Shown here: piece after piece, positions 1-42,717 of the stretch
Layout of the letters: each line of letters begins with the position of its first letter
How positions within the stretch are numbered: position 1 is the first letter of the stretch
Origin: Welwitschia mirabilis
Lineage: Eukaryota
Reading direction: 5' to 3'
DNA: 43,120 nt
NCBI GenBank assembly: GCA_051453625.1
Contig: JBOZIK010000001.1
Location: 38,510,545 to 38,553,664 of the forward strand
Translations under genes and position numbers: made by a program
The notes under the pieces: model-generated
The model's database searches: none
Told to the model about the DNA's origin: nothing
Seen by the model: the letters and a program-made list of their open reading frames with translations, nothing else

Positions 1-1617
1 AAATGTTATTCTTCTCTTTATGAAAGCAATTTTTCGTATTCTCTTTTACAAGTCTTCTCTGTGTGTACAACATTTGGGTTGATCCCACTATACAAATGTG
101 TATTGTATGCACTTAGATAATTAACTTTTCAAATATCACAAGTTAAATTCAATTTTTAGAATATTGGAATTAGAAGAACAAATATGCATTGCAATAAAAT
201 AAATTCAAGAAAAATCTTGAATCTCTTTAGCACATCTTTATGATCATTTCTATTAGATTTAGTTAACTACATCAAGGCTTGGATACTATTGGAAATGCAG
301 ATTTAATGATTTATTTATGATACATTCATATACACTGGGCTATAGATGCTTGTTGATAACATAGTACTGAATCCTTCTTATACAACATCTTAAATCTATT
401 AGAAGAAACTATTACAACACTAAATGCTTAATATAATCAAGTTATTAAAACTTGTATGCCCAAGGAATAATAAGGGAAAGGAATAAAATTAAATTGGGAT
501 TCAAGAAATCTATTTTTTGCTTGTTTAACAATTGAATTTGAGATTTCATAACTACTTGTGAAGTTGCATAGATTTACAAATTTAGAATTTTCTTTGTCTT
601 GGTAAAAGATCCATTAAAATTATGTAAATAAATAATATAATTATCTTATTTTTATTTGGTATCACTTATTCATAGGATGCATAGTAGGATTTATTATTTC
701 ATTCATTNNNNNCATCACATTTTCACTCACTTTCATCATTTATTCCAAGCTATAATCCTTTTACATTTTTTTAATGAAAAAGCATATCAATAAAAACATT
801 GTTTTATTTGTGATTTAATCTATTTACTTATGTTTAGATCTAAGGTAAATTGATCCAAATCATTAATAAAATTTAGTCATTTAATAATCCTCATTTCTTT
901 CACTTTCTATACAAACCCATGATTTCTAAGCCATCTTCACTGAGCATTCATAGGTTTTGTGATCTTCACACTGTTACAGCCCCTCTAAAGTTCACTTAAG
1001 ATAAGTTTTTATGTTTTGCTAGTATTTCCATCTACTCTCAGTAGTATCATTATCTATTTCTTTTTTTCATGTTCAACTTTTTCTTATGGTGCTAGTTTGA
1101 TTTCCTCTTAGATTATAGTTGATTGGTGATCCCATTTTCATTCTTAAAATTATTTGTTCTTTCACATTCCATTTTTCATTTTTTAATAGTTATTTTCACT
1201 TGCCTTTTATTTTTGTTTCTTTTTCTTTCTTCCATTTTATCATTTTAGGCTATCATAATTGGGATAGCAAATTCCTTTTTAGAAGAATACATCTTTACAT
1301 GATTCCTTGTCTTGTTTAAATCCTTCTATTTTGATAAAATTTAAGAAAGAAATTAGAATTATTTGCTAAATGAGGATAGCATCTACTACTTCTCAAAGGC
1401 TATTTTAGAGTTCTACAATAATGCAATAATTGATGAAGATAACTCTTCAATTATTCATTCCTCAATTTAATATGCTTCCTTTGTTATTTTCCTTAATTAT
1501 CTAGAAGCCTTATTAGAAGTTGAGAATCATAATAGTTTGATTTATATGCTTACTAAATCTCTTATCTATTGTTATGCTGCATTTAATGTTGAATATTAAT
1601 TAAATAGAAAAGTCTTT

Positions 1618-1887
1618 ATGCTTTCCAAATACCTCTACAAGAATCAACTTGTAGTTTGTAGGTTTATCATTCAAAATGTTTTAGCCACATCTCATGTAAG
1701 CTATGTCTATAGTAGTTATCTTAATATGATTAGGATTATAAAATATAGTAAACCCTTTGATATTTCTAAATGCATCCTTACTACTATCGTTAATAATATT
1801 GGCCACAAAAGTAAACATCCCTCCCATTGCTTAGTTTTAAACTTAATTCACAATTCCTTAGCTCATGTCTTAGATTTTAAGGAATGA
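1618..1887 (+). pseudogene. Athila env-like/ORF2 ('putative plant transposon protein', Transposase_32-like) fragment
   Basis: RFIIQNVLATSHVSYV...IIKYSKPFDISKCILTTI...HCLVLNLIHNSL fits the family pattern FIxxNLxPxxHxSxV...IxxxxxIDVGxxIxxxI...LPFPxLITxL. It lies upstream of the Athila 3' motif, as expected. Confidence 0.55.
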
Positions 1888-4037
1888 GATAAAACCTTTA
1901 TTGAGATCATTAACCCTAAAATTATTACCCAACTCAGCAAGTATAAGAATCATTATTGTATTCTAAAGTCCTTTAAGAAATTCAAGAAAACAAAGTAGAA
2001 CATATTCAAAGGATACCTCCTTCTCAAACTCCTTCTTCTCCCTTATTTTTCACCCACTACAATAAGAAAGGGGAAGTCTCCTACTAGTGAAATGTTTCAT
2101 GCTCTTTTTTCTCCACATTTTTCTATGTCTTCTTCCACTAATTTTATATATTCCTTACTACTTTAAATAATACCTTGTTATAAGAAGTCCCCAAATCTCA
2201 AAGGAATTAGATTGAAAAGTTATAGGAGAAGATGAAAAAGATTTCCAAAAAATAAAAAGAGATGTTCAAGAACCAATAAGAGATGGATGAAAAGTTAGAG
2301 AGGTTGGCCTTCATAAAAGATCTTTGAGCTAAATTTCTTTCACTCTTTTACTCTATTACCCTTCTCCACCTGCATTTTTCATTTGTAATATTTACATTGT
2401 ACTTACATCTTGCTTTATTGTAATGTCTTTTAAACTTAATAAGAAATTAATCTGAATTTATATTTTTGTAAATCTGATTTTAATTCTAAACTAACACTTA
2501 ACTATAAAATTCTTAATTCGGTTTTGAGGCCCTAAAATGTAAGATTTAATTTGTAACTCTTAATAGAGATAATGTTGTTGGTATCTTTAATCAGTGCCAT
2601 TACCTTGTGTAGATAGATTTCTTTTTACATAGACATTCTATATCACATTTCCTATGTCTTTATTACTTGGGTCTCTCTTAAAAATTTATATAAATTAGCT
2701 GATTTAGATTTATCGTATACTCATTCATTCAAAATCATCACATTCAATTCTTTATCCTCCTCATTTTTTAGTTATCTTTTGATCTTTTATGCATTTATAC
2801 ATTTCAAATTGAGAAATTTAAAATATTACAAGTAAAGCTTTTTTTTTAAGTCTTTCATTTGCATTAATTCATACTTTATCATTTCTAGTTTAATCATGCA
2901 TTGCATATTTTTTTCTAGTAATTTTCTTTCTAGCTCATTCTATACCACATTAGCACATGCATCATTCATTTTTTATTGTGATTAAAATTTAATTTTTTAT
3001 CATTCAAACTTTGAGGATAAAGTTTAGCCTTGGTTAGAGGGAGTAACATTTGCACTTAAGTATATATTTTTTATGCTTTGTCTTTTACTTAAGTGTAATT
3101 TCAAAGTATAATGGCTAAAATTTTTTCAAACTTTCTTCATCTTTTTATACTCAATTGACTTGATTTGAAATTTTTTCGATGTTATCTAATTTTTTAACAG
3201 AATTTTTTTTCTAAGGACTAACAAAATAAAAATTGACATTTTCATTAAGGAACTAAGGCCTTAGAATAATTATTAATTAATTATCACAATGGTTTTATGC
3301 ATTTAATATATTTAAGGCCATGGAAATGCTAACTTACTAATAATCTATCTTGATACTACCATTTTATAGGATAAATGTGTCATTAGTATCATTATGATAG
3401 AAGATGCAAGTATGGTAAGCATGGCAATGCTAGTTCTAGTGGCATGGAATGAGTTACTCTAAGTAGAATAATATCAAACTCATGTTCTTGAGTTCTCTTA
3501 TTACAAGAAATTCATTCCAATCATTTTCAAAAACATAAGATGAGCAAGAAATATATTGTAAGAAGATAATTTTTTCATACACTTTGGAAATTATTTATAA
3601 TGACTCCATTATACCTTTTAAATCTTAATTATAAATCCTAATTTTTGCCTAAAAATACCTATCCCTTTTCACTTGCATGGAATACTTCATGTCATATCAT
3701 TATTAAAGACATTGGAGTTTTTAGTCATTAGTTCTTTTTAAGCCTCCAATATGGATGGGATAGCTATCAAGCTAACATGATACTTCTTGTTTTAGCATGA
3801 GTACATTCTCAAATTGTATGCTACTGATTTTTAGATAATAAAATACTACATGTTATTGGTATATTACTTTGATATCAAGTTGTGATTGTTTCATTCTTAT
3901 TATGCATAGTATTGGCTAAGGTATGATTTAACTTTAAGATCTTTTTGGTGATTCTTTTCTTCATTCTATCTTGCATAATCTAAATATTTATTTATAGATC
4001 CTAAAAGACCCATAGGCTAGATGACTCAGATATATTA

Positions 4038-18749: not shown

Positions 18750-18946
18750 ACTTGGCCACGTATGAAGGCCTCTTACGTCACGTCACCGACAAGACACATC
18801 CAACGTCTTTCTTCTGGAAATTAATAAACTTACACAACAACATCGAAAACTACACACGTGTTTACTAAACCATCTTCCTTCCAAGGGGGAAGACGAGCTA
18901 ATCCATGTCGGTGACGGAGCGCATCGGCGCCGTTGCGCCTATATAA
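18750..18946 (+). promoter_or_regulatory. GLP proximal promoter: ACGT-box cluster, two inverted TGTCGGTGACG elements, TATA box
   Basis: GCCACGTA (~18755), TTACGTCACGTCA (18773-18785), CACGTG (~18856), CGTCACCGACA (18781-18791) and its reverse complement TGTCGGTGACG (18906-18916). TATATAA at 18940-18946, 52 bp before the ATG. Confidence 0.7.
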
Positions 18947-18998
18947 GCGGAATCAGAGACAGAGAAACGCCATCCAACCAAAAGCAAAAAACCAAAAG

Positions 18999-19667
18999 AT
19001 GGCGAAGCCGAGAAACGCATGGATAACGGCGCTAGCGGTGTTCATGATGGCGGCGGCCACGGCGCACGGGGCGGACGAAGATCCTCTACAGGACTTCTGC
19101 GTGGCGACGAACGACACCGGAATATTCGTAAACGGCGTGCCGTGCAAGAATTACAGCGAAGTAAAGGCAGCCGACTTCAAAACGTCGGCGCTGGCAAAGG
19201 CCGCTACGCCGACCGCACTTTTCGGAAGTGTGGCGACCGGCACGTCAACGAAGAACCTGCCGGGCGTTAACACTCAAGGCCTCACTATGGTGCGATTCGA
19301 CTTTGCGAAAGGCGGCGTGGTGCCGCCGCACAGCCATCCCCGGGCAGCGGAGGTCGTTTTTGTCCTGAAAGGTGGGCCGATCACCGTAGGTTTCATTGAT
19401 ACTAATAATACGTTGTTTCAGCAGACTCTGGGTGTTGGGGATATCTTTGTGTTCCCTCGCGCGCTAAATCATTTTCTGGTGAATGTGGGTAATGGCCCCG
19501 CGGCGTCCATTTCGACTCTGAGTAGTCAGAATCCGGGTACATCTCTGCTTCCTTTGACTCTCTTCGGCGTCTCCCCTGCTATTCCTGATAATGTTTTGGA
19601 AAAGGCATTCAAGCTGGATGCCCGAAAGATCGCCAGCCTCCGAAAGGAGTTCGGTGGGTCTAAGTAG
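18999..19667 (+). CDS. GLP: Germin-like protein (cupin_1; secreted, Mn-binding), 222 aa, intronless
   Basis: Signal peptide MAKPRNAWITALAVFMMAAATAHG, then ADEDPLQDFCVA (box A) and the partner Cys in NGVPCK. Box B GGVVPPHSHPRAAEVVFVLKG and box C GDIFVFPRALNHFLVN retain all four metal ligands (H, H, E, H). C-terminal SSQNPG and IPDNVLEKAF. N-glycosylation sequons NDT, NYS, NNT. The ATG follows an A-rich leader; stop TAG at 19665-19667. Confidence 0.96.
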   Translation: MAKPRNAWITALAVFMMAAATAHGADEDPLQDFCVATNDTGIFVNGVPCKNYSEVKAADFKTSALAKAATPTALFGSVATGTSTKNLPGVNTQGLTMVRFDFAKGGVVPPHSHPRAAEVVFVLKGGPITVGFIDTNNTLFQQTLGVGDIFVFPRALNHFLVNVGNGPAASISTLSSQNPGTSLLPLTLFGVSPAIPDNVLEKAFKLDARKIASLRKEFGGSK

Positions 19668-20816: not shown

Positions 20817-22750
20817 TGAATAAAGTAAAAACTCAATTCTTAAAATGAGGACATCATTCTTTGAGCCTTTGCAAAAATAGATGTGTACTTGACATGATAA
20901 TTCAACTTAGGGAAAGGAAATTAAGTATAAAAAGTTCAAATTGCATCATAAAGAAATCTCCTAGTTCGAATTATGTATGTAGTGGAAGCACACCAATATT
21001 AAACTAATGAAACACTTGACATAAATTTACATGGAAATATTAACATTGTCTTACTAAACTGTCACTTCATATGATAAAATAACTATTTCTCTTAAGTGAC
21101 ATACAATGACATAAAATAATCGGGAAAAAGACTACATATTTAGAAAATTGATACTTGCATTCAGGGCAGATCCCTTCCAGTAACTACAACCTCTCTCGGC
21201 ACGTCTAGCTCTTGACCTTCTCATTGCAGGCATATATGAAGCAACCCCTTATGTTGCATTTCGCAAGATGTGAAAAAGCTAATACAATAAAATAAGAAGT
21301 TGCCTTTCATGNNNNNNNNNNNNNNNNNNNNNNNNNNNNNNNNNNNNNNNNNNNNNNNNNNNNNNNNNNNNNNNNNNNNNNNNNNNNNNNNNNNNNNNNN
21401 NNNNNNNNNNNAAAGACTACATATTTAAAAAATTGATACTTGCATTCAGGGCAGATCCCTTCCAGTAACTAGAACCTCTATTGGCACGTCTAGCTCTTGA
21501 CCTTCTCATTGCAGGCGTATATGAAGCAATCCCTTATGTTGCATTTCGCAAGATGTGAAAAAGCAAATACAATAAAATAAGAAGTCGTCTTTCATGAACA
21601 TTCAAAAGATTCTAAAGATCATTTATAATTCATATGAATAAGCAAAGAAATTTAAACAGTTAAATTTACCTAAGTCATTTTCATATATAAAATATTTTTC
21701 TTAAAAAATTTACTACTTGAATTCATATCGTATGAATGTAATCAGATAATTCAAACATCTCATTCCATTCTATGTAAAATGTACATCAATGTAGAATCAA
21801 AATATAACACTTGCAAAGCTATATTTTTCAAATTGACTAGGCAAACTATTTAACTTTATCAAGATTTTTACTAAATTGTGATACATTTGACTTGAAAGAT
21901 AACTCTTTACTTAGCTTAAAATGGATTATAAAATCATGGAAACATAAAAATTAGGATTCAAATCAATAGGTAATTGATAAAAACTAGCATAGGAATGTTT
22001 ATTAAATTAAAGTAATACCTATTGAATTTGGAGTTGTTTTGATCAATAGAAAGAGAAGAAATGAAGAAGAGAGAGAAAAGGAAGAGAGAAATTTCAGAAG
22101 AAAGGATTTAGAAAATCTCAAAACCTTCAAAATACTTGGAATATGTTCTAAAACAAGTTTTTAAAACTGAGTATTCAAGATTAAGTAGAATTGATTGCAA
22201 CTAATCAAAATAGTTCATCTAGAAAAAACTTCACAAAGTCATAGTCAACCTTATTTTGACCAAGAATATTAAGAAAACTACAAAACTTGCAAAAAACTAG
22301 ATTTCATATTCTAAAAGTAATTAAAACATACTACAAGATAAAATCTTGAATTTTAGAAAACACATTAAGAATGACTAAGAAATTCATTGTGCAAAAGTAG
22401 AAAAAAATAAGACTTAACAGTTCAAAAATTTGTCCAAGTAAAACAACAACAAAGACTGAATATGGCTAAAAAAGGGTTTTTATGGGCCAAATTTAGCTTC
22501 TAACTCTTTGAGAAAGAAAGTTTCTAAATTTTGAGAGGATGCTACTGAGAAAATGTTAGAACCATTAGATTTGTATCTAAAGTGTTGTGGCCAAAATAAA
22601 TACTACAATTCAGTATTCTACTTTAATTTTGAGAAGGAGAGATAGAAGAGAGAATAATTCTTACAAAAAAGAAATAAGTTAAATTTTAAAAAAAACATAA
22701 ATAACATATTTACAAACCAATATACTATTATTGGAAAGGGGGAAAAATAT
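20817..22750 (-). repeat. Athila 3' LTR, truncated (U3 lost); includes a gap-associated duplication
   Basis: Colinear with 30547-~32100, roughly 80-90% identical by eye. Homology stops at ~22750, where it abuts integrase-coding sequence. Confidence 0.85.
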
Positions 22751-22759
22751 ACTAATCAT

Positions 22760-25252
22760 TATGATAAAATTCTAAGATATAATCATTTCATTCTCAGGTA
22801 CACACCTTCAAAGATATGGTCAGCACAATATTTAAACAAAAGAGGTAGTTCCCAAAAAAATTTATGTTATTGAGATAAAATTTTCTTTTGATCATGGTAA
22901 CACAAATTATTAGGAATTTTCCTATGGGATTTAAAACTTACAATATCAGTATATCAAGGCAAAACATTCATAGTAAATAAATTTTCATCAAAAAGAAGTT
23001 TCATTAATTTCAGATGAACCAATATGTATGAAAATACAAGATAAATGATCAACAAATAGGTTTTACTTTTCTAATATATCTTTAATAGTAATATCAAAGT
23101 CTTGCATAAGTAAAGCCCAACGCATAAGATAAGGTTTAGTTAAGGGATTCTTTGGAATGTATTTCAAAGCAGCATGATTAGTAAAGATAATTACAGGATA
23201 ACCAATCAGATAGTGGTAAAATTTTTCAAAAGTAAAGATAACAACTAACATATCCTTTTTAGTAATATAATAATTAAGTTTTGCATCATGCAAGGTCTTA
23301 CAAGCAGAGGAAATAACTAGGGGTTTATGCTTAAGAGTTGAAGTAATACTACACTTACTGTGAAGTCACTTGCATCACTCATTACTTTAAAGTGATAATA
23401 CTAGTTAGGATATTAAAGCAAAAGTGAAGATGACAAAAGATCTTTAAGTTTTTGAAATGCAATTTCACACTCAGTGTCTAAGAAAAAGACGCATCTTTCA
23501 AAAGCAACTTAGTTAAAGTTTTAGTAAGAGAACTAAAAAATGGAATGAAATGGTGATAGAAACCAGCATGTCCTAAGAAAGATCTTATATATTTAACATA
23601 ATTAAGAGTAGGAAGAGAATAAATAATATCAATCTTAGTAGGATCTTATTCTATTACTTCTTTAGAAACAATACGGTTGACAACAATGCCTTTAGTAACC
23701 ATGAAATAACGTTCCTTCCAACTAAGTTTAAGATTATGATCAATATAACAATTTAAGGTTAACTTTAAATGACAAATTGTTTGATAAAAAGAATCACCAT
23801 AAAGAGAAAAATCATTCATAAAGCCTTCTAAAAATTCATCNNNNNNNNNNNNNNNNNNNNNNNNNNNNNNNNNNNNNNNNNNNNNNNNNNNNNNNNNNNN
23901 NNNNNNNNNNNNNNNNNNNNNNNNNNNNNNNNNNNNNNNNAATGACACATTATTTGATAAAAAGAATCAACATAAAGAGAAAAATCATTCATAAAGCCTT
24001 CTAAAAATTCATCAATAAATTTAGTAAAGGGACTAGTCATATACCTTTGAAAAGTTATAAGAGCATTACATAAACCAAAAGGCATGCAACGATAGCAAAA
24101 GTTCCAAAGGGACAAATAAAAGTAGTCTTTCTTGATCTTCTAGAGCTATAGGAATTTGATTATAACTGCTATATGCATGTAGAAAACAATAATAATGATG
24201 ACCATAAAGTTTATTAAAATTTAGATCAATGAAAGTAATAGGAAAATGATACTTTTTTAGTATGATTATTAAGAGCACAAAAATTAATATAAATTTATCA
24301 TTTATCATTCTTGTTTGGAACAACTTATAAAAGGCNNNNNNNNNNNNNNNNNNNNNNNNNNNNNNNNNNNNNNNNNNNNNNNNNNNNNNNNNNNNNNNNN
24401 NNNNNNNNNNNNNNNNNNNNNNNNNNNNNNNNNNNNNNNNNNNNNNNNNNNNNNNNNNNNNNNNNNNNNNNNNNNNNNNNNNNNNNNNNNNNNNNNNNNN
24501 NNNNNNNNNNNNNNNNNNNNNNNNNNNNNNNNNNNNNNNNNNNNNNNNNNNNNNNNNNNNNNNNNNNNNNNNNNNNNNNNNNNNNNNNNNNNNNNNNNNN
24601 NNNNNNNNNNNNNNNNNNNNNNNNNNNNNNNNNNNNNNNNNNNNNNNNNNNNNNNNNTATTTTTTAGTATGATTATTAAGAGCATGAAAATTAATATAAA
24701 TTTATTATTTATCATTCTTGTTTGGAACAACTTATAAAAGGCTCACCCATTCACTATCTACAATGGGGTAAATAATATCAACTTTCCAACATTTCATGAT
24801 TTCTTCTTTAATAATATCTCTAAGCTTTGATTTAACCTATGCTGAGGTTGTGACCAAGTTTGATACCAGGTTGTAAGTAAATATGATAAGAACAAACAAA
24901 GGAATGAACACCAACCAAATCATGATAAAACTAAGTAAAAGCTAGAGAATGTTCAAGTAATAAATCAGTAAGCTCTTTTTCTTAAAGAGGAGTAAAATGA
25001 GCACTAATGATAACAGGTTTAGATTGATTACTACCTAGAAAGTTGTACTTTAAATGATCAAGTAGAGGTTTTAAATCATCATTAGCAAGACTATTTGCGA
25101 TAGAAATATCATTCAAAGAAATATTCATTTTTATTTATTTAAAAACATAATTAGAATCTTCAAAATTAACACATTCAATAGGAGTACCAATTTCATTTGA
25201 ATCTAAATAAGATGCAACAAGCAATTTATACTTAGCATCTAGACAAAGCATG
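22760..25252 (-). pseudogene. Athila pol remnant: RT, RNase H and start of integrase
   Basis: LKPLLDHLKYNFLG..PVIISA; CFLHAYSSYNQIPIALEDQE; YRCMPFGLCNALITFQRYM; EGFMNDFSLYGDSF (FMDD site); SDASDFTVSVV; NYYITKKDMLVVIFTFEKFYHYLIG..TNHAALKY..RWALLMQDFDITIKD; FFWELPLLFKYCADHI..RCVPENE. Many stops and frameshifts. Confidence 0.92.
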
Positions 25253-25257
25253 CCATT

Positions 25258-27828
25258 TTTTGTGATTATTTTTGGCAACTCTATGTTAATTTGATTGTAA
25301 TTTTACCAATAAAAATAAAATTAAGCCTTATGCATTCACATGGATGCAGAGAAAATATGTGAATTAAAAAGTGAGATAGAACTTGAGAGAGAGGTAGAGG
25401 TTAATTTTATATGTCATTAGAAAGACAGAAACAAATGACTTTATTAAGCATCTACAAATATCTTCCTAGCATTATATTTTTTCCTTTTTTCCATTGTAAA
25501 ACATAAATCCTTATAGATTTATAATTAAACATGGAATATTAATTTCTATGAAATAATTTATTTTATTAAAAGATAATTTAAAGGTCTTCTTAGCTACATG
25601 CAAAACTAAAACATTCAATTAAAAGAAAGATTTCTTTTATCAAATAAATTAAATCCCAAATTCACATTTGGCCAAATAATAATTAAAAAAACATAGTGTT
25701 TTGGGATGCATGAAATGAACCATGAATTGTTTTAAATTTGAGTATCGCACTGATGCAATAATGAAAAGTTAAGCTAAGAATAATAGATTCAGGATGAAAC
25801 CTGGTCACTGTGTATTGTCCTCCTTTGAATGATGCTTTGTTATCTTCTGTGTGCTTCTCTCTCTTGCGTTGTAGTTTTGCTGCTGTATTCTTTTGCAATG
25901 CCTTCTTTTATTGTTTTGATTGTTGCTTATGTGATTTCAAATTGATCTACTGCGTTGTTGCTCGTTCGCCTCTGATCTTCGTCAACGCCTTGTCCGTTTT
26001 TCTGATGAATTCGCTTGCTCTGTGACTTTACTGCTCTGTTTTCTTTTCTTTTTGATTTCGGTGTTCTTCAGCTCTGGAAATCTCTTTGTTCTGTAAGCGC
26101 TGTCGTCCTTTTCATCTGATGCGCTTTCTTGATCGTTCTGCCACTGTTCTACTCCTCTGTGATGTCCCTGCACATGCTGGTTCACTGCGCCTCTATTAGA
26201 TGTTCAGTCAATGCCCTGTCTGTCCGTCCCACCTCTGTTTTCCCTGCTGTGTCCCGTCTGTGATGCGTTTCCGGCTTTAGCTTTGACACGTGCTTTCTTC
26301 TACACTTTTGATCCTCTCTCCAGAATACCTTTTTTTGCTAGTGCGTCGTCGTTTCTGGTGCTTTTTCCAAGCGCGTTGCTTCTCTGGTGTGCTTTGATGG
26401 ATCCGAGTGTTGTGGCCTCCTCCTCTTTTTAAAACGCAGGTTTTGGCCTCTGTTTCCAATATATTCTCTCATCCTCCTTCTTGTGTTCTTCTTTAGTCAC
26501 GTTCCTGCATGATTCACGAACAAGAAAAATAGAATATTCATGGAATTCTCTCCACTTTGTGTCATGCCTCTAAATGCTTTGGCAAATAATAACCATAGTT
26601 TGTATTCATGCATCTTCTGTAAAAAGGACATAGTTATGTGCAGTGCGTATGAAGGAAACTGCATCACTGTTTGATACGATGTACCCTTGAAAACTCCAGG
26701 CATTTCTAGCTGTTTCAGCCAGGAGAGTGTAGTCAGCACAGGTGGGAACTCCATTAACACTGTTATACAAGCACCTGATGCCACTGGGCTGTTCTTCCTC
26801 TTCACAGCTCTTCAAGGGCGGTTGGCATGTATCCAAGAGATCTTGTTTACTCACCAGTGCATCAAAGGAATAGCGAGTAAGATCCATCCAAAATCATAAA
26901 CAGTAAAATGTTTAAAGTAAGCAAAAGCCTTTTCATCTGTAGAAGAGCGAATATCTTTGAGCCAGCCATTTGCAGTATCGCCTTGAAGACCCTTGACAAA
27001 GGCAACAGAATACCGAGCTAATGAGCACTGGGTCCTCCCTGGGTGTCTCATGGTCTCTCCCCCATCTCGGATCTTTGAAAATATTGACATCGGGTGTCCA
27101 AAACATTAGCCTTTCGGCCTGCCCAGTGTTGAAGGATGCTGTAGCCTCTGTTCCAGTGACCTGCCCGATAAGATATTAGAGACTGGTTTCACAATTTTTC
27201 CGGAAAAAATTACTTGAGGAAAGGTGGTTGTAGATCAATGCTTCCCCAAAACAGATTCCGTATCTTTGTAGAATGTTTCTGCAACGATAGCCATGTAATC
27301 ATCCAACACAAAAAATTTATTTCTGCATCCAACTATTCCAAATTATTTTCATGTTGACTAAAATTTTTATGGTATGAAATGCGGAAGAAGTCATACGGAA
27401 AATGGAGTCCATGAATTATGGAATGGCATAGGACTTTATAATAAATGAAATAGGGGTTTGAGAAGATGAATGGCTAAAATAGGAAGAGAGTGAGCATTAA
27501 TAGTAAAATTTAAACATTACGAAGGTGTGTAAAAAGGGAAGGTGAATAAAGAAGGCAGAATAGGGTACTGAAAATGTTTGTGTAAATGAAAATAAAAAGG
27601 AGGGTTAAATGGGTATAGGGTCTTTTTGAGATATTTGTATGGGTAGCCAAGAACTATGAGATCTTTTAGAACAAATTTGTTAGAGACATTAACTGGCTAG
27701 TTATATATTGATTGAGTAAAAAAAAGGGGGGGAATATTGAGTGTATAAAGGAGGTATGTATAGAAAGGTAGACAAAATGTACTTGTAGGAAAATAACAAA
27801 TTATTTGTAAGTAAAATACGACCCTACA
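25258..27828 (-). mobile_element. 2.57 kb TSD-flanked insertion (probable Ty3/gypsy solo LTR, alternatively an L1-made retrocopy) carrying a BXL gene fragment
   Basis: CCATT(T) direct repeat at 25253-25257(8) and 27829-27833(4). Excision restores the host pol frame. The minus strand starts TGTAGGGTCGTATTTT and ends GCCAAAAATAATCACAAAA. TATA-like TTTTAAAAAGAGGAGG at ~26419-26434. Confidence 0.75.
26609..27300 (-). pseudogene. BXL: GH3 beta-D-xylosidase/alpha-L-arabinofuranosidase (BXL7-like) N-terminal-domain fragment, frameshifted and intron-less
   Basis: Across frames: [172 protein letters not shown]. Confidence 0.92.
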
Positions 27829-27833
27829 CCATT

Positions 27834-30090
27834 TAAAAATAAAGATAAATCATTACTCATAGGTTGTATTTCAGGCACAGAAATATGTGTATTCAATTCA
27901 ATAGTCTTTTTATTTCTAATTATAAAACACATTTAAGGTAATGGAAAGATTGCCAAAAATAATTTTCAATGCACTAGATCCACAATTAATTTCCTAATCT
28001 ACTGTAGCAAGCTAAGCTAAGGTCTAACAAGAATGATAGGGTATCTAGTGGAATTCATAGAAATTTTAAGAATAATGAAGTCAACAGGATAAACTACTTT
28101 ATCAACTTCAATTAATACATGTTTTAAGATTCTTGAGATCTTAACCAGGGTTCCATTAGCAACATAAAGAAGTACATCACTGGAATCAACATGATTAAAT
28201 CCTAAGGCATGGAAAATATGTTCGAGCATAAGGTTGACTCTAGCTTCTAAATCTACTATGGTTTTATCAATAATACAATTATCAGTAGTAATAGAAATAG
28301 TGGGGGATCCAGGGTCACCATATTTCACAGGGATTTTCAATTCCAAAACATAAGTGGTAAATGTAATAAGATTAAGTGTTTCTCTAGAAAATTGAATCTT
28401 TCATTTATGAGTGCATAAGTCTTTACGAAACTTGGCATATAGAGGAGTTTTCTTAATTACCTCACGAAGAGGAAAAGTAATGCTAACATCTTTAAAAATT
28501 TTATGAATCTTATCATAGTTATTAAAACCTTTATCAGATTAAAAACGAGTAAGTAAATGGTAGAATATTTTGATTTTATTTTCTTTTTAAAATTTTTCCC
28601 TAGAATCAAATTTAAGGTTTTCAATTATTTAATCTAAAGTTACATCTTCTTTATCTTTAGAACTAGTTTCTGAAATTACTTTTTCACTTCTTAATCTAAT
28701 GGCATTTACATTAGTGTATTCTTACATCACATTAGTTGATTTTGAATTAAGAGCAAATGGAGAAGGTAAGCTAGGATGACTCTCCTTTTCATTTTGTTGT
28801 TGAAACATGAAATTAGTAGTTTTTTTTCCTTTTGACCCATTTGATTAACTAATAACTTCATTTTTTCTTCTGAATTGTTTTCCAATGGAGGAGGAAGAGA
28901 GAAAGATTTAGGTTGCCATTAAGATTGATTGTTATAAGGATGAAAGGAATTATGATGGAAATTCTTTAAATGAGAATTGAAATACTTATCAAATGGCAAG
29001 AGGGCATGATAATTTTAATTAAAGGTATGAGCTTCAGAAAGATGATGATGATGATGATGATGTAAAGCACTTTGAACTACCTTAAAGTTTTCATAAATTT
29101 TAATGGAATTATCCTCTACTTGACACAACTCATAAAAAGATGAATGTGAAAAAGGTTGGATTGGAATTTTCTTAAGATTTTCTTATTCTAATTTAGCATT
29201 TTTTAAGTTGAGTAGATAGAACTTCCATTTTCTTAGCTAATTCATCATTAGATTTTCCCTTATAAAAAATTTCATTTAAGCTAAACTTACTTCTAACATG
29301 GTCATTATTAACATTTCCCCATCTTTGAGTAGCTTCTACTAGATCTTCTAATTCTTTTAATGATTTATCAGTAGTAGAATTTAATAAATCCTTAGTCATT
29401 AATGTTTTTAATAACTTCATAGTTTTTTCAATTAAGATCTTCTCGAAATAATTAAACTAATTTCTAAACTTTAAAGAAATAATTGAAATTTTTAATTAGA
29501 AGATCTTTAAAACACTTAAAAGTTTTAGAATAAGATTTAGTCAAAGATTGCTTGAAACTACTAATAAGATTTCTCAATTGATTAATGCAAGTAAAAGGGA
29601 GAAATTTTTAATAAAAGATTCTTTAAATTTTCCAAGAATTGAAAGATATTAATTATGATTAACAAGTTTAATCTAATGTTTAGCTCTTTTTTTTAAGAAA
29701 AGAAGAAGAATTTATAATTTAGCTTCATCAAAATGAGCTTGCGAAGTTATCTTATAGACTAGGTTAAATTCTTCAAGAAACTTATAAGGATCCTCATAAT
29801 ATAAACCATGAAAAGTAGAAAAATCTTTAAGGTTTTCAATGAAAATTGAAGCATCATGAGTAAAAGAAATAAGAGAGTTCGTTTGAGAACCTTCAAAAAG
29901 CTAACCAAAAGTAGGTTGAGAATCAGAATTATGAGCATTACTATCTCTAGTAGCTATTTGAGAAGAAAGAATATTTGAGGCATCAACAACAATGTCAAAT
30001 TTAAGTGGAGATGAAATCAAAGGTGGAGATGGAATACAAGGTAAAGAGGGTTCAGAACTATGCAAATGTTTACCAGTACAAATCTAATTT
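27834..30090 (-). pseudogene. Athila gag and aspartic protease remnant
   Basis: gag motif FSTFHGLYYEDPYKFLEEF (~29765-29822). Protease IPVKYGDPGSPTISITTDN..IVDLEARVNLM..VANGT..VLIEVDKVVYPVDFIIL..PIILVRP (28017-28346). Confidence 0.9.
29041..29062. repeat. (GAT)7 microsatellite within the gag linker
   Basis: GATGATGATGATGATGATGATG read directly from the sequence. Confidence 0.9.
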
Positions 30091-30546: not shown

Positions 30547-33404
30547 TAAATAAAGTAAAACATCAATTTTTAAAATGAGGATATCACACTCTGAGCCTTC
30601 ACAAAAATAAATTTGTACCTAACATAATTTAACTTAGGGAAAAAATTAAGTATAAAAAGTTCAAATTTCTTCATAAAGAAATCTTCTATGTTGAATTACA
30701 TATATAGTGAAAGCACATGAGTATCGAACTGATGGAATACTTGACATGAATTTATATGGAAATATTAACATTATGTAATCAAAATATCATTTCATCTAAT
30801 AAAACAACTGTTTCTCTTAAGTGACACACAACTAATTAAACACACATGACATAAAATAATTGTGAAAAAACTACATGTGTAAAAATGGAATTTCACAAGA
30901 TGTAAAAGAGGAAATACAATAAAATTAAAAAAAGTAATATTTCATGAACATTCACAAGATTCTAAAGATCATTTATAATTGATATGAATAAGTGAAGAAA
31001 TTTAAATAGTCCAATTTACCTTAGTCATTTTCATATATAAAAATAATCTTTCTTGAAAAATTCACTTGTTGAATTCATATCATATGGATGTAATTAGGTA
31101 ATTCAAACATCTAATTCCATTCTATGTAAAATGCACATCAATTTAGAATCTAAATGTAACACTTTCATAATTAGATTCTTTAAATTAACTAGGCAAACTC
31201 TTTAACTTTATCAAGATTTTCACTGATTTGGAATACATTTGACTCAAAAGGTAACTCTTTACTTAGCCAAAAATAAATTATAAAACCATTGAGAAATATA
31301 AACTAGGATTCAAGTTAATAGGTAATTGATAAAGCCTAGCACATACATGTTCATTTAATCAAAGTAATACTGAGTTAATTTTAAGTTGTTTTGACTAATA
31401 GAAAGAGAAAAAATGAAGAAAAAAGAGAAAAGGGGGAGAGAACATTCAAAAGAATAGATTTATAAAATCTTAGAACCTTTAAAATACTCAAAATATGTCT
31501 AAAACAAGTTTCTAAAACTAAATATTCAAGATTAAGTAGAAGCAATTGCAACCAATCAAAATAGTTCATCTAGGAAAAAAAAACTGCAGAAACATACAGT
31601 TAATTCTGTTTTAATCAAGAATATCAAACTAACTACAAAATGTGAGAAAAATGGATTTCATATTTTAAAAGTACTAAAAACATACTACAAGATAAAATCT
31701 TGAATTTTTGAAAACACATTAAATATGACTGAGAAATTCATTATTCAAAACTAGAAATAGAAAGATTTGATAGTCAATGAATTTATTTAAGTGAAACTAG
31801 AATTAAGATTAAACATGGCTAAAAAATGGATTTTAGAGGATGAATTTGGATTTTAAATCCTTTACAAAGAAAATTTCTAAACTAGGAGAGAAATCTATTG
31901 ATAAACTTTCAAAACCATTGGAGTTGCATAAAAAGGGTTATGGCCAAAACAAGTACTGAAATTCACTATTCTACTTTGATTTTGAGAAGAAGAGGTATAA
32001 GAGAGAATAATTCTTGAAAAATAAATAATTTTAATTTTAAAAAAAAACATAAATAACCTATTTACAAATTTAATTACTGCTATTAAAAAGGAGAAAATGT
32101 AAATTCATGATCTATTTCCTAGAAGAAATGTGGAATCATGAGAAATGTACTAGAAGATGAAATGAATGAAGGAAAGAAAAGAGAAAAAAAAAAGAAAACA
32201 AATGATTTATTTTAATAAGAAGTGATCAAACATGCAAATTTTCAGATTGCCATCAAGGGTACTAATTTTCAAGCAATCTAATTAGCACGAATTATGCTAT
32301 AAGCTATAAAAGGTCTAATTGAATTGAAAGAAATTCATGATACAAATGAATAAATTAAGTAATTAAAATCATAAAAAGCATAAAGAAAAGAACACTTATT
32401 TGTTTTATATGAATGCACAGCCTTAGTCTTCCATCTAATTGCTTACAAGATTAAATGCCTTCTCCTCTTCTTACACTACGAATTATGTGCACTTCACCAC
32501 CCCTACAAAGATGGATGGAAATAGGAGAAAAGATGTTGAAAAATGGGATATGAAATGGTCTAGGAGAATGAAAATGAACTTGGATGACTACAAAAGATGT
32601 GAATGAGAAATATAGAAGGTTTCCAAAGTTGATATAGAAAGAAACTCAACTTAGAAATGAAGAAAAACGATAGAAGATCTCTTTCCAATTTTGGGAATGG
32701 TAAGGTGTAATAATATGAGTTTGAACACTGGAGGAGGGGTATTTATAAGGGTAATAGGGTTAGTTGTAGGCTAAGGAGTTTCCAAAACCATCGCCAATTC
32801 ACTATGATTCATGAGGTTTTAGGAAAAACTGTCACATAGTGTTGTAGTGCCATTTTACTCTTGGAAATGTGGCAGAGTCATAGATAGTTTTATAGATAAC
32901 TACCAAAACTTCAAAAATAAAACTTAATCTAATATTATTTCTTAAACCTTACAATACATGAATTCATCAATTTAGACACACAAATAACTATAAAGATACA
33001 AATTATAGCTTCTGCAATGTAATTTCCAAGGTACTAATGTCTTGAATGGTTATGATGTCATCTAATGTCATCCATCCAGTGTCAGAATGAGTCATATTAA
33101 TCACGTTAGAAAGAGGATGATATATGATGATGAAAATGGGCCTATGAATCATCTATAGAGCTTCTACATTGAAGTAGTCATTCATGATTTGCATTTTCAC
33201 CCTCAATCTTGATCTCTTAATCACAAGCATCGCAAGGAGCCTTAAACTATAATATAATGCATCATTTTAAGCTTAGTAAATGTCCAAGGTCCATGTCTCC
33301 TAAAATGTTAAAACATACCTCTAAATGCAGTATTAAAGTTCAAAACATAACATAAAATATTTAACTATTAATACCTTATTTTGTCTAAAATTTAGACTTC
33401 ATTA
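30547..33404 (-). repeat. Athila 5' LTR (~2.86 kb)
   Basis: Adjacent to the PBS. Minus-strand TATA CCTTATAAATACCCCTCC (TATAAATA at 32740-32747). Outer end TAATGAAGTC (decayed TGATG..) is flanked by the TSD. Confidence 0.82.
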
Positions 33405-40871: not shown

Positions 40872-41195
40872 GGGGATCGACTAGAACCTAGAGGGGTCAA
40901 CTGCACCTGAAGCAGACACAATAGAAATGAACTAAACCTAGAGGGGTCTACCGGATTATGAAGGGGTTGACCGGACCTATGATATCAAGAATCAATAGTC
41001 CCAGAACGAGAGGAATGGGGTCGATCGGATATTCATGGGGTTGACCGAATTTGAATAGCTAATAGTTAAGTCCCAGATCTAGAGGAAAGGGGTCGACTGG
41101 ATTTTCATGGGGTTGACCGGATCTGAGAAGCTAACAGTCTATAGTTCCAGACTGAGATACAAGGGGTTGACTTGACCTAGGATGGGGTCGACTGA
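40872..41195 (+). repeat. Array of 10 GGGGTCGACCGG-like motifs in 5 pairs
   Basis: Motif starts at 40872/40893, 40943/40963, 41017/41037, 41089/41109 and 41163/41184. Confidence 0.9.
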
Positions 41196-42717
41196 GTTCT
41201 TATAGGGCCGATCGGATATTTGTAGGATCAACCAAACGACATAAAAAATTAAATCTTGTAGACATTATGTATCCATTACCTAGTCATTACCTAGCTGTTT
41301 TCTAGCCATTTATAGTTGTTGGAGGCGCAATTAAGTTGTATCAAACCCTAATATCCCTCCATTATAAATACCTAAGCAAGAGATGACCTAGAGATCTCTT
41401 GGCACATTTTTAAGACTAGTATATTCACTATGGATCTGAAACATCAAGTAGCATATTTCATTAAAACATTTTTTGTACTGATTCATATCTGATTGAGAAG
41501 ATCTATTCCTGGATTAGGATGTCACTCAAAATCAGATCTAAGCACTTCATTATTGTATTCATTTGGAGAAGAACTCCATTCTATGTACTGATACTGAATA
41601 AGTAATATTAGAGCTACAAATACTTCATTGCATCACTTCTATTTATCTTCAAAGGTTGAGACTTAGCCTATAAAAGTCTGTTGTCAAAGGTTAAAACTTA
41701 GCCTATAAAAGTCCGTTGTTAAGGTTGAGACTTAGGCTATAAAAGTCCATTTATAAGGATTAATAGGTGAGCCTAATAAAACCTACGAAATAACAGAGAT
41801 CCAAGATCAAGCTTGGGAGAAGCTGATCATCGAGAGTGGAGTAGGGGAGTTCTCAAACCACTATAAATCCTNNNNNNNNNNNNNNNNNNNNNNNNNNNNN
41901 NNNNNNNNNNNNNNNNNNNNNNNNNNNNNNNNNNNNNNNNNNNNNNNNNNNNNNNNNNNNNNNNNNNNNNNNNNNNNNNNNNNNNNNNNNNNNNNNNNNN
42001 NNNNNNNNNNNNNNNNNNNNNNNNNNNNNNNNNNNNNNNNNNNNNNNNNNNNNNNNNNNNNNNNNNNNNNNNNNNNNNNNNNNNNNNNNNNNNNNNNNNN
42101 NNNNNNNNNNNNNNNNNNNNNNNNNNNNNNNNNNNNNNNNNNNNNNNNNNNNNNNNNNNNNNNNNNNNNNNNNNNNNNNNNNNNNNNNNNNNNNNNNNNN
42201 NNNNNNNNNNNNNNNNNNNNNNNNNNNNNNNNNNNNNNNNNNNNNNNNNNNNNNNNNNNNNNNNNNNNNNNNNNNNNNNNNNNNNNNNNNNNNNNNNNNN
42301 NNNNNNNNNNNNNNNNNNNNNNNNNNNNNNNNNNNNNNNNNNNNNNNNNNNNNNNNNNNNNNNNNNNNNNNNNNNNNNNNNNNNNNNNNNNNNNNNNNNN
42401 NNNNNNNNNNNNNNNNNNNNNNNNNNNNNNNNNNNNNNNNNNNNNNNNNNNNNNNNNNNNNNNNNNNNNNNNNNNNNNNNNNNNNNNNNNNNNNNNNNNN
42501 NNNNNNNNNNNNNNNNNNNNNNNNNNNNNNNNNNNNNNNNNNNNNNNNNNNNNNNNNNNNNNNNNNNNNNNNNNNNNNNNNNNNNNNNNNNNNNNNNNNN
42601 NNNNNNNNNNNNNNNNNNNNNNNNNNNNNNNNNNNNNNNNNNNNNNNNNNNNNNNNNNNNNNNNNNNNNNNNNNNNNNNNNNNNNNNNNNNNNNNNNNNN
42701 NNNNNNNNNNNNNNNTT

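Follow-up and report, generated by a model that had tools for sequence, protein, structure and literature searches.

The DNA analyzed here (the window) is a 43,120-nt stretch of the Welwitschia mirabilis contig JBOZIK010000001.1, in which A and T make up 36% each (A+T of ca. 72 to 74%) and which contains seven runs of N. Within it, an old long terminal repeat (LTR) retrotransposon on the minus strand hosts an inserted block of 2.57 kb that carries a fragment of BXL, a GH3 beta-xylosidase gene (coordinates in Table 1). The two LTRs of the host element are only 79 to 81% alike. Its RNase H fits a Ty3/gypsy-type model (Pfam RT_RNaseH, E of 1.4e-16), and the match of its reverse transcriptase (RT) to RVT_1 is weak (E of 3.7e-4, under the Pfam cut-off). 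On sequence grounds, the host is an old Ty3/gypsy-type LTR retrotransposon. The open reading frame (ORF) upstream of the insertion is a putative protease by a resemblance of motifs; a Pfam search with it gave no match. The motifs LKPL..HLKY.FLG and DLEARVNLM may be of the Athila/Tat kind.

On the minus strand, the block starts with TGTAGGG and finishes with AATCACAAA, and it interrupts the pol frame of the host. Both flanks end in a copy of CCATTT, and the continuity of pol across the block was judged from their codon phase. This phase is equal at the two copies, (A)(AAT)(GG.), and the flanks therefore belong to one frame, in which the right flank ...DLSLFLNG continues as the left flank GMLCLDAKYKLL..., with one stop between the ORF at 25135 to 25302 and the same-frame ORF at 24982 to 25134 (LKPLLDHLKYNFLG). 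At random placement (n = 200,000), a flank repeat of 6 bp arose in 0.057% of cases and one of 5 bp in 0.16%.

In order to examine related sequences, DNA contigs of the read sets X1 and X9 (organism A) and X5 (organism B), as well as the raw reads of the RNA run X16, were aligned to positions 24700 to 29200 at 80% likeness; statements on contigs refer to the pieces listed, and those on copy number to a likeness of at least 80%. One contig in each of the three DNA read sets joins 25251 to 27828, skipping 2,576 bases, that is, the block plus one copy of the repeat. In host copies of greater divergence, 13 to 14 other letters stand between 25251 and 27840, or the joints run from 25210 to 27909, 25226 to 27917, and 25251 to 27914. 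These contigs, which cross the site without the block, are paralogous empty sites, and their presence in three DNA read sets indicates that members of the host family normally have one CCATT(T) at this site and no interruption. The right junction is spanned by an X1 contig (467 nt, 27481 to 27947, 3 differences), and a 1,691-nt contig covers the interior from 25762 to 27452; no contig spanning the left junction was found among the rows listed. Two pieces of organism B, records 12 and 13, are nearly identical to parts of the block (5 and 1 differences, respectively). The original prediction had described the block as inserted cleanly and at a later time, with a target-site duplication, into a pol frame that, without the block, runs on with one stop, and had proposed a look for uninterrupted relatives of the host. 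This description holds, and the relatives exist in X1, X5, and X9.

Within the block, a 95-amino-acid ORF had its best matches in the beta-D-xylosidase 7 proteins of Cryptomeria and Acorus (65% and 64% identity), 3 proteins among 110 candidates passing an E value of 0.001; a near-length protein search with the same ORF gave no match. By tblastn, residues 89 to 315 of Cryptomeria BXL7 aligned with 27262 to 26609 (106 of 227 identical, E of 6e-59), and a hidden Markov model (HMM) built from 42 BXL proteins matched 27190 to 26594 (i-E of 3.3e-61), with nothing further on the minus strand of the block. Residues 316 to 323 are missing, and homology picks up exactly at 324. When a profile of residues 324 to 338 was scanned against the six frames of the whole window, MNTNYGYYLPKHLEA, which lies in another frame and abuts residue 315, ranked first of 81,514 fifteen-mers (score of 18.6 versus 13.5 for the next). 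Neither tblastn with BXL segments nor the HMM detected BXL homology outside residues ca. 89-100 to ca. 342, whether in the 566 bases upstream of the BXL piece or in the ca. 1,300 bases downstream of it. An extension upstream to residues 76 to 99 was not supported either, the block being absent from the top matches of a scan with a position-specific scoring matrix (PSSM). The coding path has at least two frameshifts as well as in-frame stops, the Pfam Glyco_hydro_3 score (18.3 bits) is under the cut-off of 27, and only residues ca. 100 to 338 are represented, with no intact N- plus C-terminal domains in one frame. Judged by the state of its reading frame, the BXL piece is a pseudogene fragment, and the block, with its frameshifts and stops and with no RNA reads over it as a unit, is without present function. 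At least two further BXL-like loci occur in the same organism, with ca. 81 to 85% identity (X1 contigs, 26611 to 27230).

The exons of BXL were mapped from the ends of partial BXL proteins, many of which are ORFs on genomic contigs or truncated gene models. The fragment is continuous over all three boundaries recovered in this way, 233/234 (26855/26854), 290/291 (ca. 26684), and 323/324. At least 17 sequences break after G290 (for instance, the Asimina, Apostasia, Musa, and Morus models ending in ...WGF.G), and in P0260 a short in-frame intron is read through at this residue. At least 15 break after KAG323, each then running into unrelated residues, and nine start right before V234, after an unrelated stretch ending in Q. 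An X1 DNA contig (record 6, 3,671 nt) matches 27230 to 26853 and stops no more than 2 bases from the 233/234 boundary, which indicates that an intron-bearing BXL gene exists in the same organism. Continuity at the three intron positions, together with this contig, makes an origin of the BXL piece from spliced RNA well supported, if short of proven.

The rest of the block is compositionally heterogeneous. On the minus strand there are four domains, namely, a G-poor 5' part (G of 5 to 7% and C of 25 to 29% over 27359 to 27758), the balanced BXL piece, a T-poor purine tract (T of 9 to 13%, A of 34 to 52%, and GC of ca. 45% over 25859 to 26458), and an AT-rich tail. The depletion of a single base on this strand is extreme, extending over 600 bases for T and 400 bases for G. 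Long ORFs are expected in the T-poor tract, every stop codon requiring a T on that strand and an A on its complement. We considered this tract as decayed BXL coding sequence, but tblastn with 55 BXL segments gave only short, noncollinear matches (E of at least 0.03) and the HMM none. The TATA-like TTTTAAAAAGAGGAGG lies at 26434 to 26419 on the minus strand, and in the tail AATAAT stands at 25270 to 25265, 6 to 11 bases before the end, where AAA runs into the AAA of the duplication. Ten ORFs of the non-BXL parts had no match in Pfam, neither Rfam (E of up to 1) nor ARAGORN gave a match in the window, block included, so that no short interspersed nuclear element or tRNA-like part was detected, and two protein-atlas look-ups with the non-BXL parts placed the nearest named clusters at 0.76 to 0.92, which is chance level. 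In X16, RNA reads piled up ca. 200-fold on 27622 to 27713 (depths of 113 and 89 on the two mate orientations, six fixed differences), with 371 loose ends before 27622 and 168 behind 27713, the reads diverging sharply on both sides. Given this match of ca. 93%, part of the 5' domain has expressed relatives. All X16 reads fell on short substretches and came from other loci, none covering the block as a unit, a result that speaks neither for nor against its expression; a search for RNA data sets containing the stretch listed none. An upstream intron, or else a second RNA, may be the source of the 5' part as a whole. Regarding content, the results thus agree with the original prediction, which had listed a GH3 BXL coding sequence that was already spliced, the TATA-like motif, the purine-rich tract, and the AT-rich tail, with neither RT nor transposase.

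Copy number was evaluated from the summed depth of the X1 contigs, which ranged from 530 to 3,900 over the host flanks and from 5 to 67 over the block. In the center of the block (25908 to 26511, ca. 600 bases), it was 5.2 to 11.7, compared to 2.8 to 4.2 for the contigs of the locus itself. The center thus has ca. 1 to 3 times the depth of these contigs and is about single copy, the host flanks being hundreds of times deeper. Along the block, the depth was uneven (ca. 1× to 17×), so the block does not behave as one repeated unit. The 3' tail between 25304 and 25605 reached a depth of 60 to 67, which suggests a low-copy repeat. No second copy of the block and no related sequence were found elsewhere in the window.

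We consider, with slightly better than even confidence, that the block is a 5'-truncated retrocopy, now dead, whose template was an aberrant or chimeric BXL transcript and which was inserted by target-primed retroposition of the long interspersed nuclear element (LINE) type. The target, TTTTT/AAATGG on the minus strand, is a T-rich/A-rich site of the endonuclease type; TTTAAA occurs at 102 of the 43,120 positions of the window (0.24%), and by chance a cut at TTT/AAA is expected at ca. 0.24 to 0.28% of sites. The 3' end AATAATCACAAA abuts the A's of the duplication, and this A-rich end has the same orientation as the BXL sense. Target and end together fit the signature of LINE-type target-primed retroposition. 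Collinearity with a mature parental mRNA does not extend to the 3' end, and the lack of BXL homology past residue ca. 342 argues for an aberrant or chimeric template over a plain retrocopy. The original prediction had named an L1-type retrocopy at TT/AAATGG as an alternative to an LTR; this alternative fits better than the LTR, but not in its plain form, the flanks being without BXL homology.

The template would have been an RNA with spliced BXL exons (residues ca. 100 to 342) flanked by noncoding sequence. In the simplest case, it would be a partly spliced BXL pre-mRNA that retained an upstream intron, read into the intron after residue ca. 342, and was polyadenylated in that intron after AAUAAUCAC. 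The last homologous BXL codon is followed by GT (in this scheme, the intron would open with GTGGAG), and two angiosperm models break at 340-341. A LINE-type endonuclease would have nicked the host retrotransposon at TTT/AAA, the T's at the nick would have primed on the poly(A) tail, reverse transcription would have stopped after 2.57 kb, leaving the 5' truncation, and a second nick 6 bases away would have produced the CCATTT duplication. As a variant, template switching among two or three RNAs during reverse transcription may have generated a chimeric retrocopy. A mosaic composition is expected from exon plus intron as well as from several RNAs. The data show the insertion with its duplication and target sequence, the intron-less BXL piece, and the low copy number; which enzyme acted, what the non-BXL flanks are, and whether a single RNA was copied or templates were switched are matters that we infer. 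If a single RNA was copied, the block would preserve, as a fossil, a BXL transcript that was partly spliced and ended in an intron, and would be a small example of how long-intron genomes supply unusual RNAs to retroposition.

Several observations weigh against such a retrocopy. The A tail has only 3 to 6 bases (AAA before AAATGG), and an A run and AATAAT come cheaply in A+T-rich DNA. The 6-bp duplication is short for LINE insertions and fits an integrase too, the block starts with TG like an LTR (ca. 5% by chance), and the window yielded no LINE. Neither the 5' part (566 bases) nor the 3' part (ca. 1,300 bases) could be tied to a BXL gene. Moreover, plant introns are typically U-rich, and the T-poor tract (T of 11%) differs from them in a way that makes the variant with a single pre-mRNA weaker; both variants are therefore kept. 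As for splicing, most of the intron positions were taken from angiosperm or unnamed sequences rather than from the donor gene, and another contig (record 5, 2,304 nt) matches 26611 to 27005 unbroken over 233/234 and 290/291. At least one other BXL copy in this genome is therefore without those two introns. This copy may itself be processed, or a paralogue poor in introns, and an origin of the block at the DNA level from an intron-less copy of this kind retains some probability.

In its full form, this last explanation invokes repair synthesis, or an unrecognized DNA transposon, that copied an already intron-less BXL pseudogene locus, and we regard it as improbable. Record 5 provides another intron-less-looking BXL copy in the same genome, and the non-BXL flanks resemble ordinary noncoding DNA. 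However, neither of the BXL-like contigs listed matches beyond the BXL part, and retroposition accounts better for an exact duplication of 6 bp at a site of the endonuclease type. The structures that define Pack-MULE, hAT, CACTA, PIF, and Helitron elements were not found at the ends of the block, which has no terminal inverted repeats with duplications of 9, 8, or 3 bp, TA, or TTA and no Helitron ends (TC...CTRR, between A and T). Capture of a cDNA at a staggered double-strand break without a LINE, either a chimeric retrocopy made by the RT of a virus-like particle or LTR element or any other cDNA, also appears unlikely to us. It would account for an intron-less fragment in a window dominated by LTR elements, and partial retrocopies mediated by LTR elements are described in plants in the available text of PMC5470649. 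Nevertheless, LTR sequence normally flanks such copies and none is recognizable around the block, break repair is not usually the source of a clean 6-bp duplication, and the TTT/AAA site and A-run end would stay unexplained.

The inference preferred in the original prediction, a gypsy solo LTR with the BXL fragment as cargo in its unique 3' (U3) region, lost support in these analyses, given the absence of a CA end and of a terminal inverted repeat and the nearly single-copy state. We consider it very unlikely that the block is a solo LTR, from Ty3/gypsy or another kind of LTR element, with a spliced BXL fragment in U3 and a 5-bp CCATT duplication. Such a duplication is possible and lies within the 4 to 6 bp expected, the TGTAGGG start and the TATA-like motif are present, 2.57 kb is inside the LTR size range, and capture of gene fragments by LTR elements through template switching is documented in the available portions of PMC13317346, PMC5470649, and PMC2774510. 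On the other hand, the 3' end is CACAAA(A) instead of CA, so that of the termini that define an LTR only TG is present; read on the plus strand, TGTGATT...CCCTACA would require two to three extra T's between duplication and TG; and no terminal inverted repeat exists apart from the one that this shifted TGT...ACA would give. Searches of the window found neither terminal direct repeats of the block, as in miniature retrotransposons with terminal repeats (TRIM) or large retrotransposon derivatives (LARD), nor direct repeats inside the block, nor inverted repeats of the block, nor inverted repeats of any kind at a seed of 14 and a length of 40. The central 600 bases are about single copy with uneven depth, unlike one amplified unit, and no related sequence occurs elsewhere in the window. 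At 80% likeness, the contigs listed gave no sign of a family whose members share these termini and in part stand in pairs about an internal region, although very diverged copies may exist, and the two BXL-like pieces do not extend into the non-BXL parts. The cut at TTT/AAA would be a coincidence at ca. 0.24 to 0.28% of sites. What is left is the lone LTR of a very low-copy gypsy element, with spliced BXL in U3 and a CA lost by mutation, to which we assign little credence. If this were true, the U3 cargo would have been duplicated into both LTRs and would have outlived the element.

Table 1. Coordinates of the inserted block, its parts, and the host retrotransposon in the window
Feature	Positions	Strand	Basis or remarks
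Inserted block, 2,570 bp	25259-27828	- (sense taken as minus)	Sequence, read-set contigs
Target-site duplication, left copy, CCATTT (minus strand: AAATGG)	25253-25258	.	Sequence; single copy in related host elements
Target-site duplication, right copy, CCATTT	27829-27834	.	On minus strand TTTTT precedes, giving target TTTTT/AAATGG
5' part, pyrimidine-rich, G-poor (G 5-9%), 566 bases	27263-27828	-	Composition; no match with HMM, PSSM, or Pfam
92-nt stretch, ca. 93% match to abundant RNA of another locus	27622-27713	.	X16 reads
BXL coding fragment, residues ca. 89/100-315 of Cryptomeria BXL7	26609-27262	-	tblastn, HMM
BXL residues 324-338 (MNTNYGYYLPKHLEA)	26565-26609	-	Profile scan; joined directly to residue 315
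T-poor purine-rich tract, about single copy	25800-26499	-	A 44%, G 25%, C 19%, T 11%; GC ca. 45%
AT-rich 3' tail ending ...GCCAAAAATAATCACAAA	25259-25799	-	Sequence, composition
Host element, 3' LTR	20819-22745	-	78.7-81.3% identity to 30549-32097; holds N gap with duplicated edges
Host element, 5' LTR	30549-32097	-	78.7-81.3% identity to 20819-22745
Host element, RT and RNase H remnants	23063-24139	-	Pfam RT_RNaseH E 1.4e-16; RVT_1 E 3.7e-4
Host element, ORF upstream of insertion (protease region of the original prediction)	28017-28400	-	Open reading frame

Three of the N runs (21312 to 21411, 23841 to 23940, and 24336 to 24657) each lie between direct copies of 73 to 185 bases that are 95 to 96% identical. 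These gap-edge repeats span 21127 to 21596, 23768 to 24013, and 24253 to 24742, inside the host LTR and RT, and look like gap-closing artifacts. Tandem arrays at 40997 to 41138 (two units of 70 to 72 bp, 84% identity) and 41652 to 41763 (three units of 34 to 35 bp, 81% identity) adjoin an 844-base N run (41872 to 42715). On the plus strand, ca. 1.2 kb from the LTR of the host element, an uninterrupted frame of 250 codons for a germin-like protein (18915 to 19667; Cupin_1, E of 3.4e-36) has a signal-peptide-like start, lies in a GC-rich island (36 to 47% GC), and is probably a real single-exon gene.

In order to put the block into perspective, we compared it with known systems. In the available text of PMC5470649, a short poly(A) remnant and target-site duplications are the hallmarks of LINE activity, and the LINE retrocopies treated there resemble the block in the intron-less gene, what may be a short A remnant, the duplication, the TTT/AAA site, the 5' truncation, and the low copy number. 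The block differs in that only ca. 0.7 of its 2.57 kb is gene derived, its noncoding flanks being unexplained, and in that it has neither the 3' coding half nor a recognizable untranslated region, with a very short tail and duplication. LINE template jumps are also known to have given rise to retropseudogenes such as the mammalian U6/L1 chimeras. A fungal tripartite pseudogene has been attributed to jumps between RNAs, and in chimeras of this kind, as far as the available text of PMC2104539 describes them, RNA copies are fused head to tail inside one pair of duplications, as may be the case here. Template jumps would explain the four compositional domains of the block, in which, unlike in those chimeras, BXL is the one component assigned to a known RNA and a LINE 3' part was not found.

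LTR elements with gene fragments share with the block an RNA-derived piece of a host gene in retroelement-associated DNA. In maize, 425 LTR elements carry gene fragments, Bs1 being among the known cases (available text of PMC2774510), and BARE-2 and Veju are further examples (available text of PMC13317346). In contrast to the block, the elements described in these texts have two LTRs, TG/CA ends, and amplification. In the available text of PMC3726574, the captured genes are given no position within their elements. Pack-MULE, Pack-CACTA, and Helitron elements likewise hold host gene fragments inside a mobile unit; what they capture, however, is genomic DNA, introns included, and the elements themselves are bounded by terminal inverted repeats, with duplications of 9 or 3 bp, or by Helitron ends, structures that the block does not have. 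The main value of the analysis lies in annotation, the best label for the block being a retropseudogene derived from BXL and nested in a gypsy element, and neither an LTR family nor a xylosidase gene. According to the available part of PMC13477047, one conifer genome contains 224,957 processed pseudogenes, and captured gene fragments number ca. 400,000 in each gymnosperm genome. With hundreds of thousands of such sequences per genome in that account, one more is to be expected, and the block is one more case of the routine processed pseudogenes and gene fragments that plants harbor in retroelements, the product of an ordinary event.

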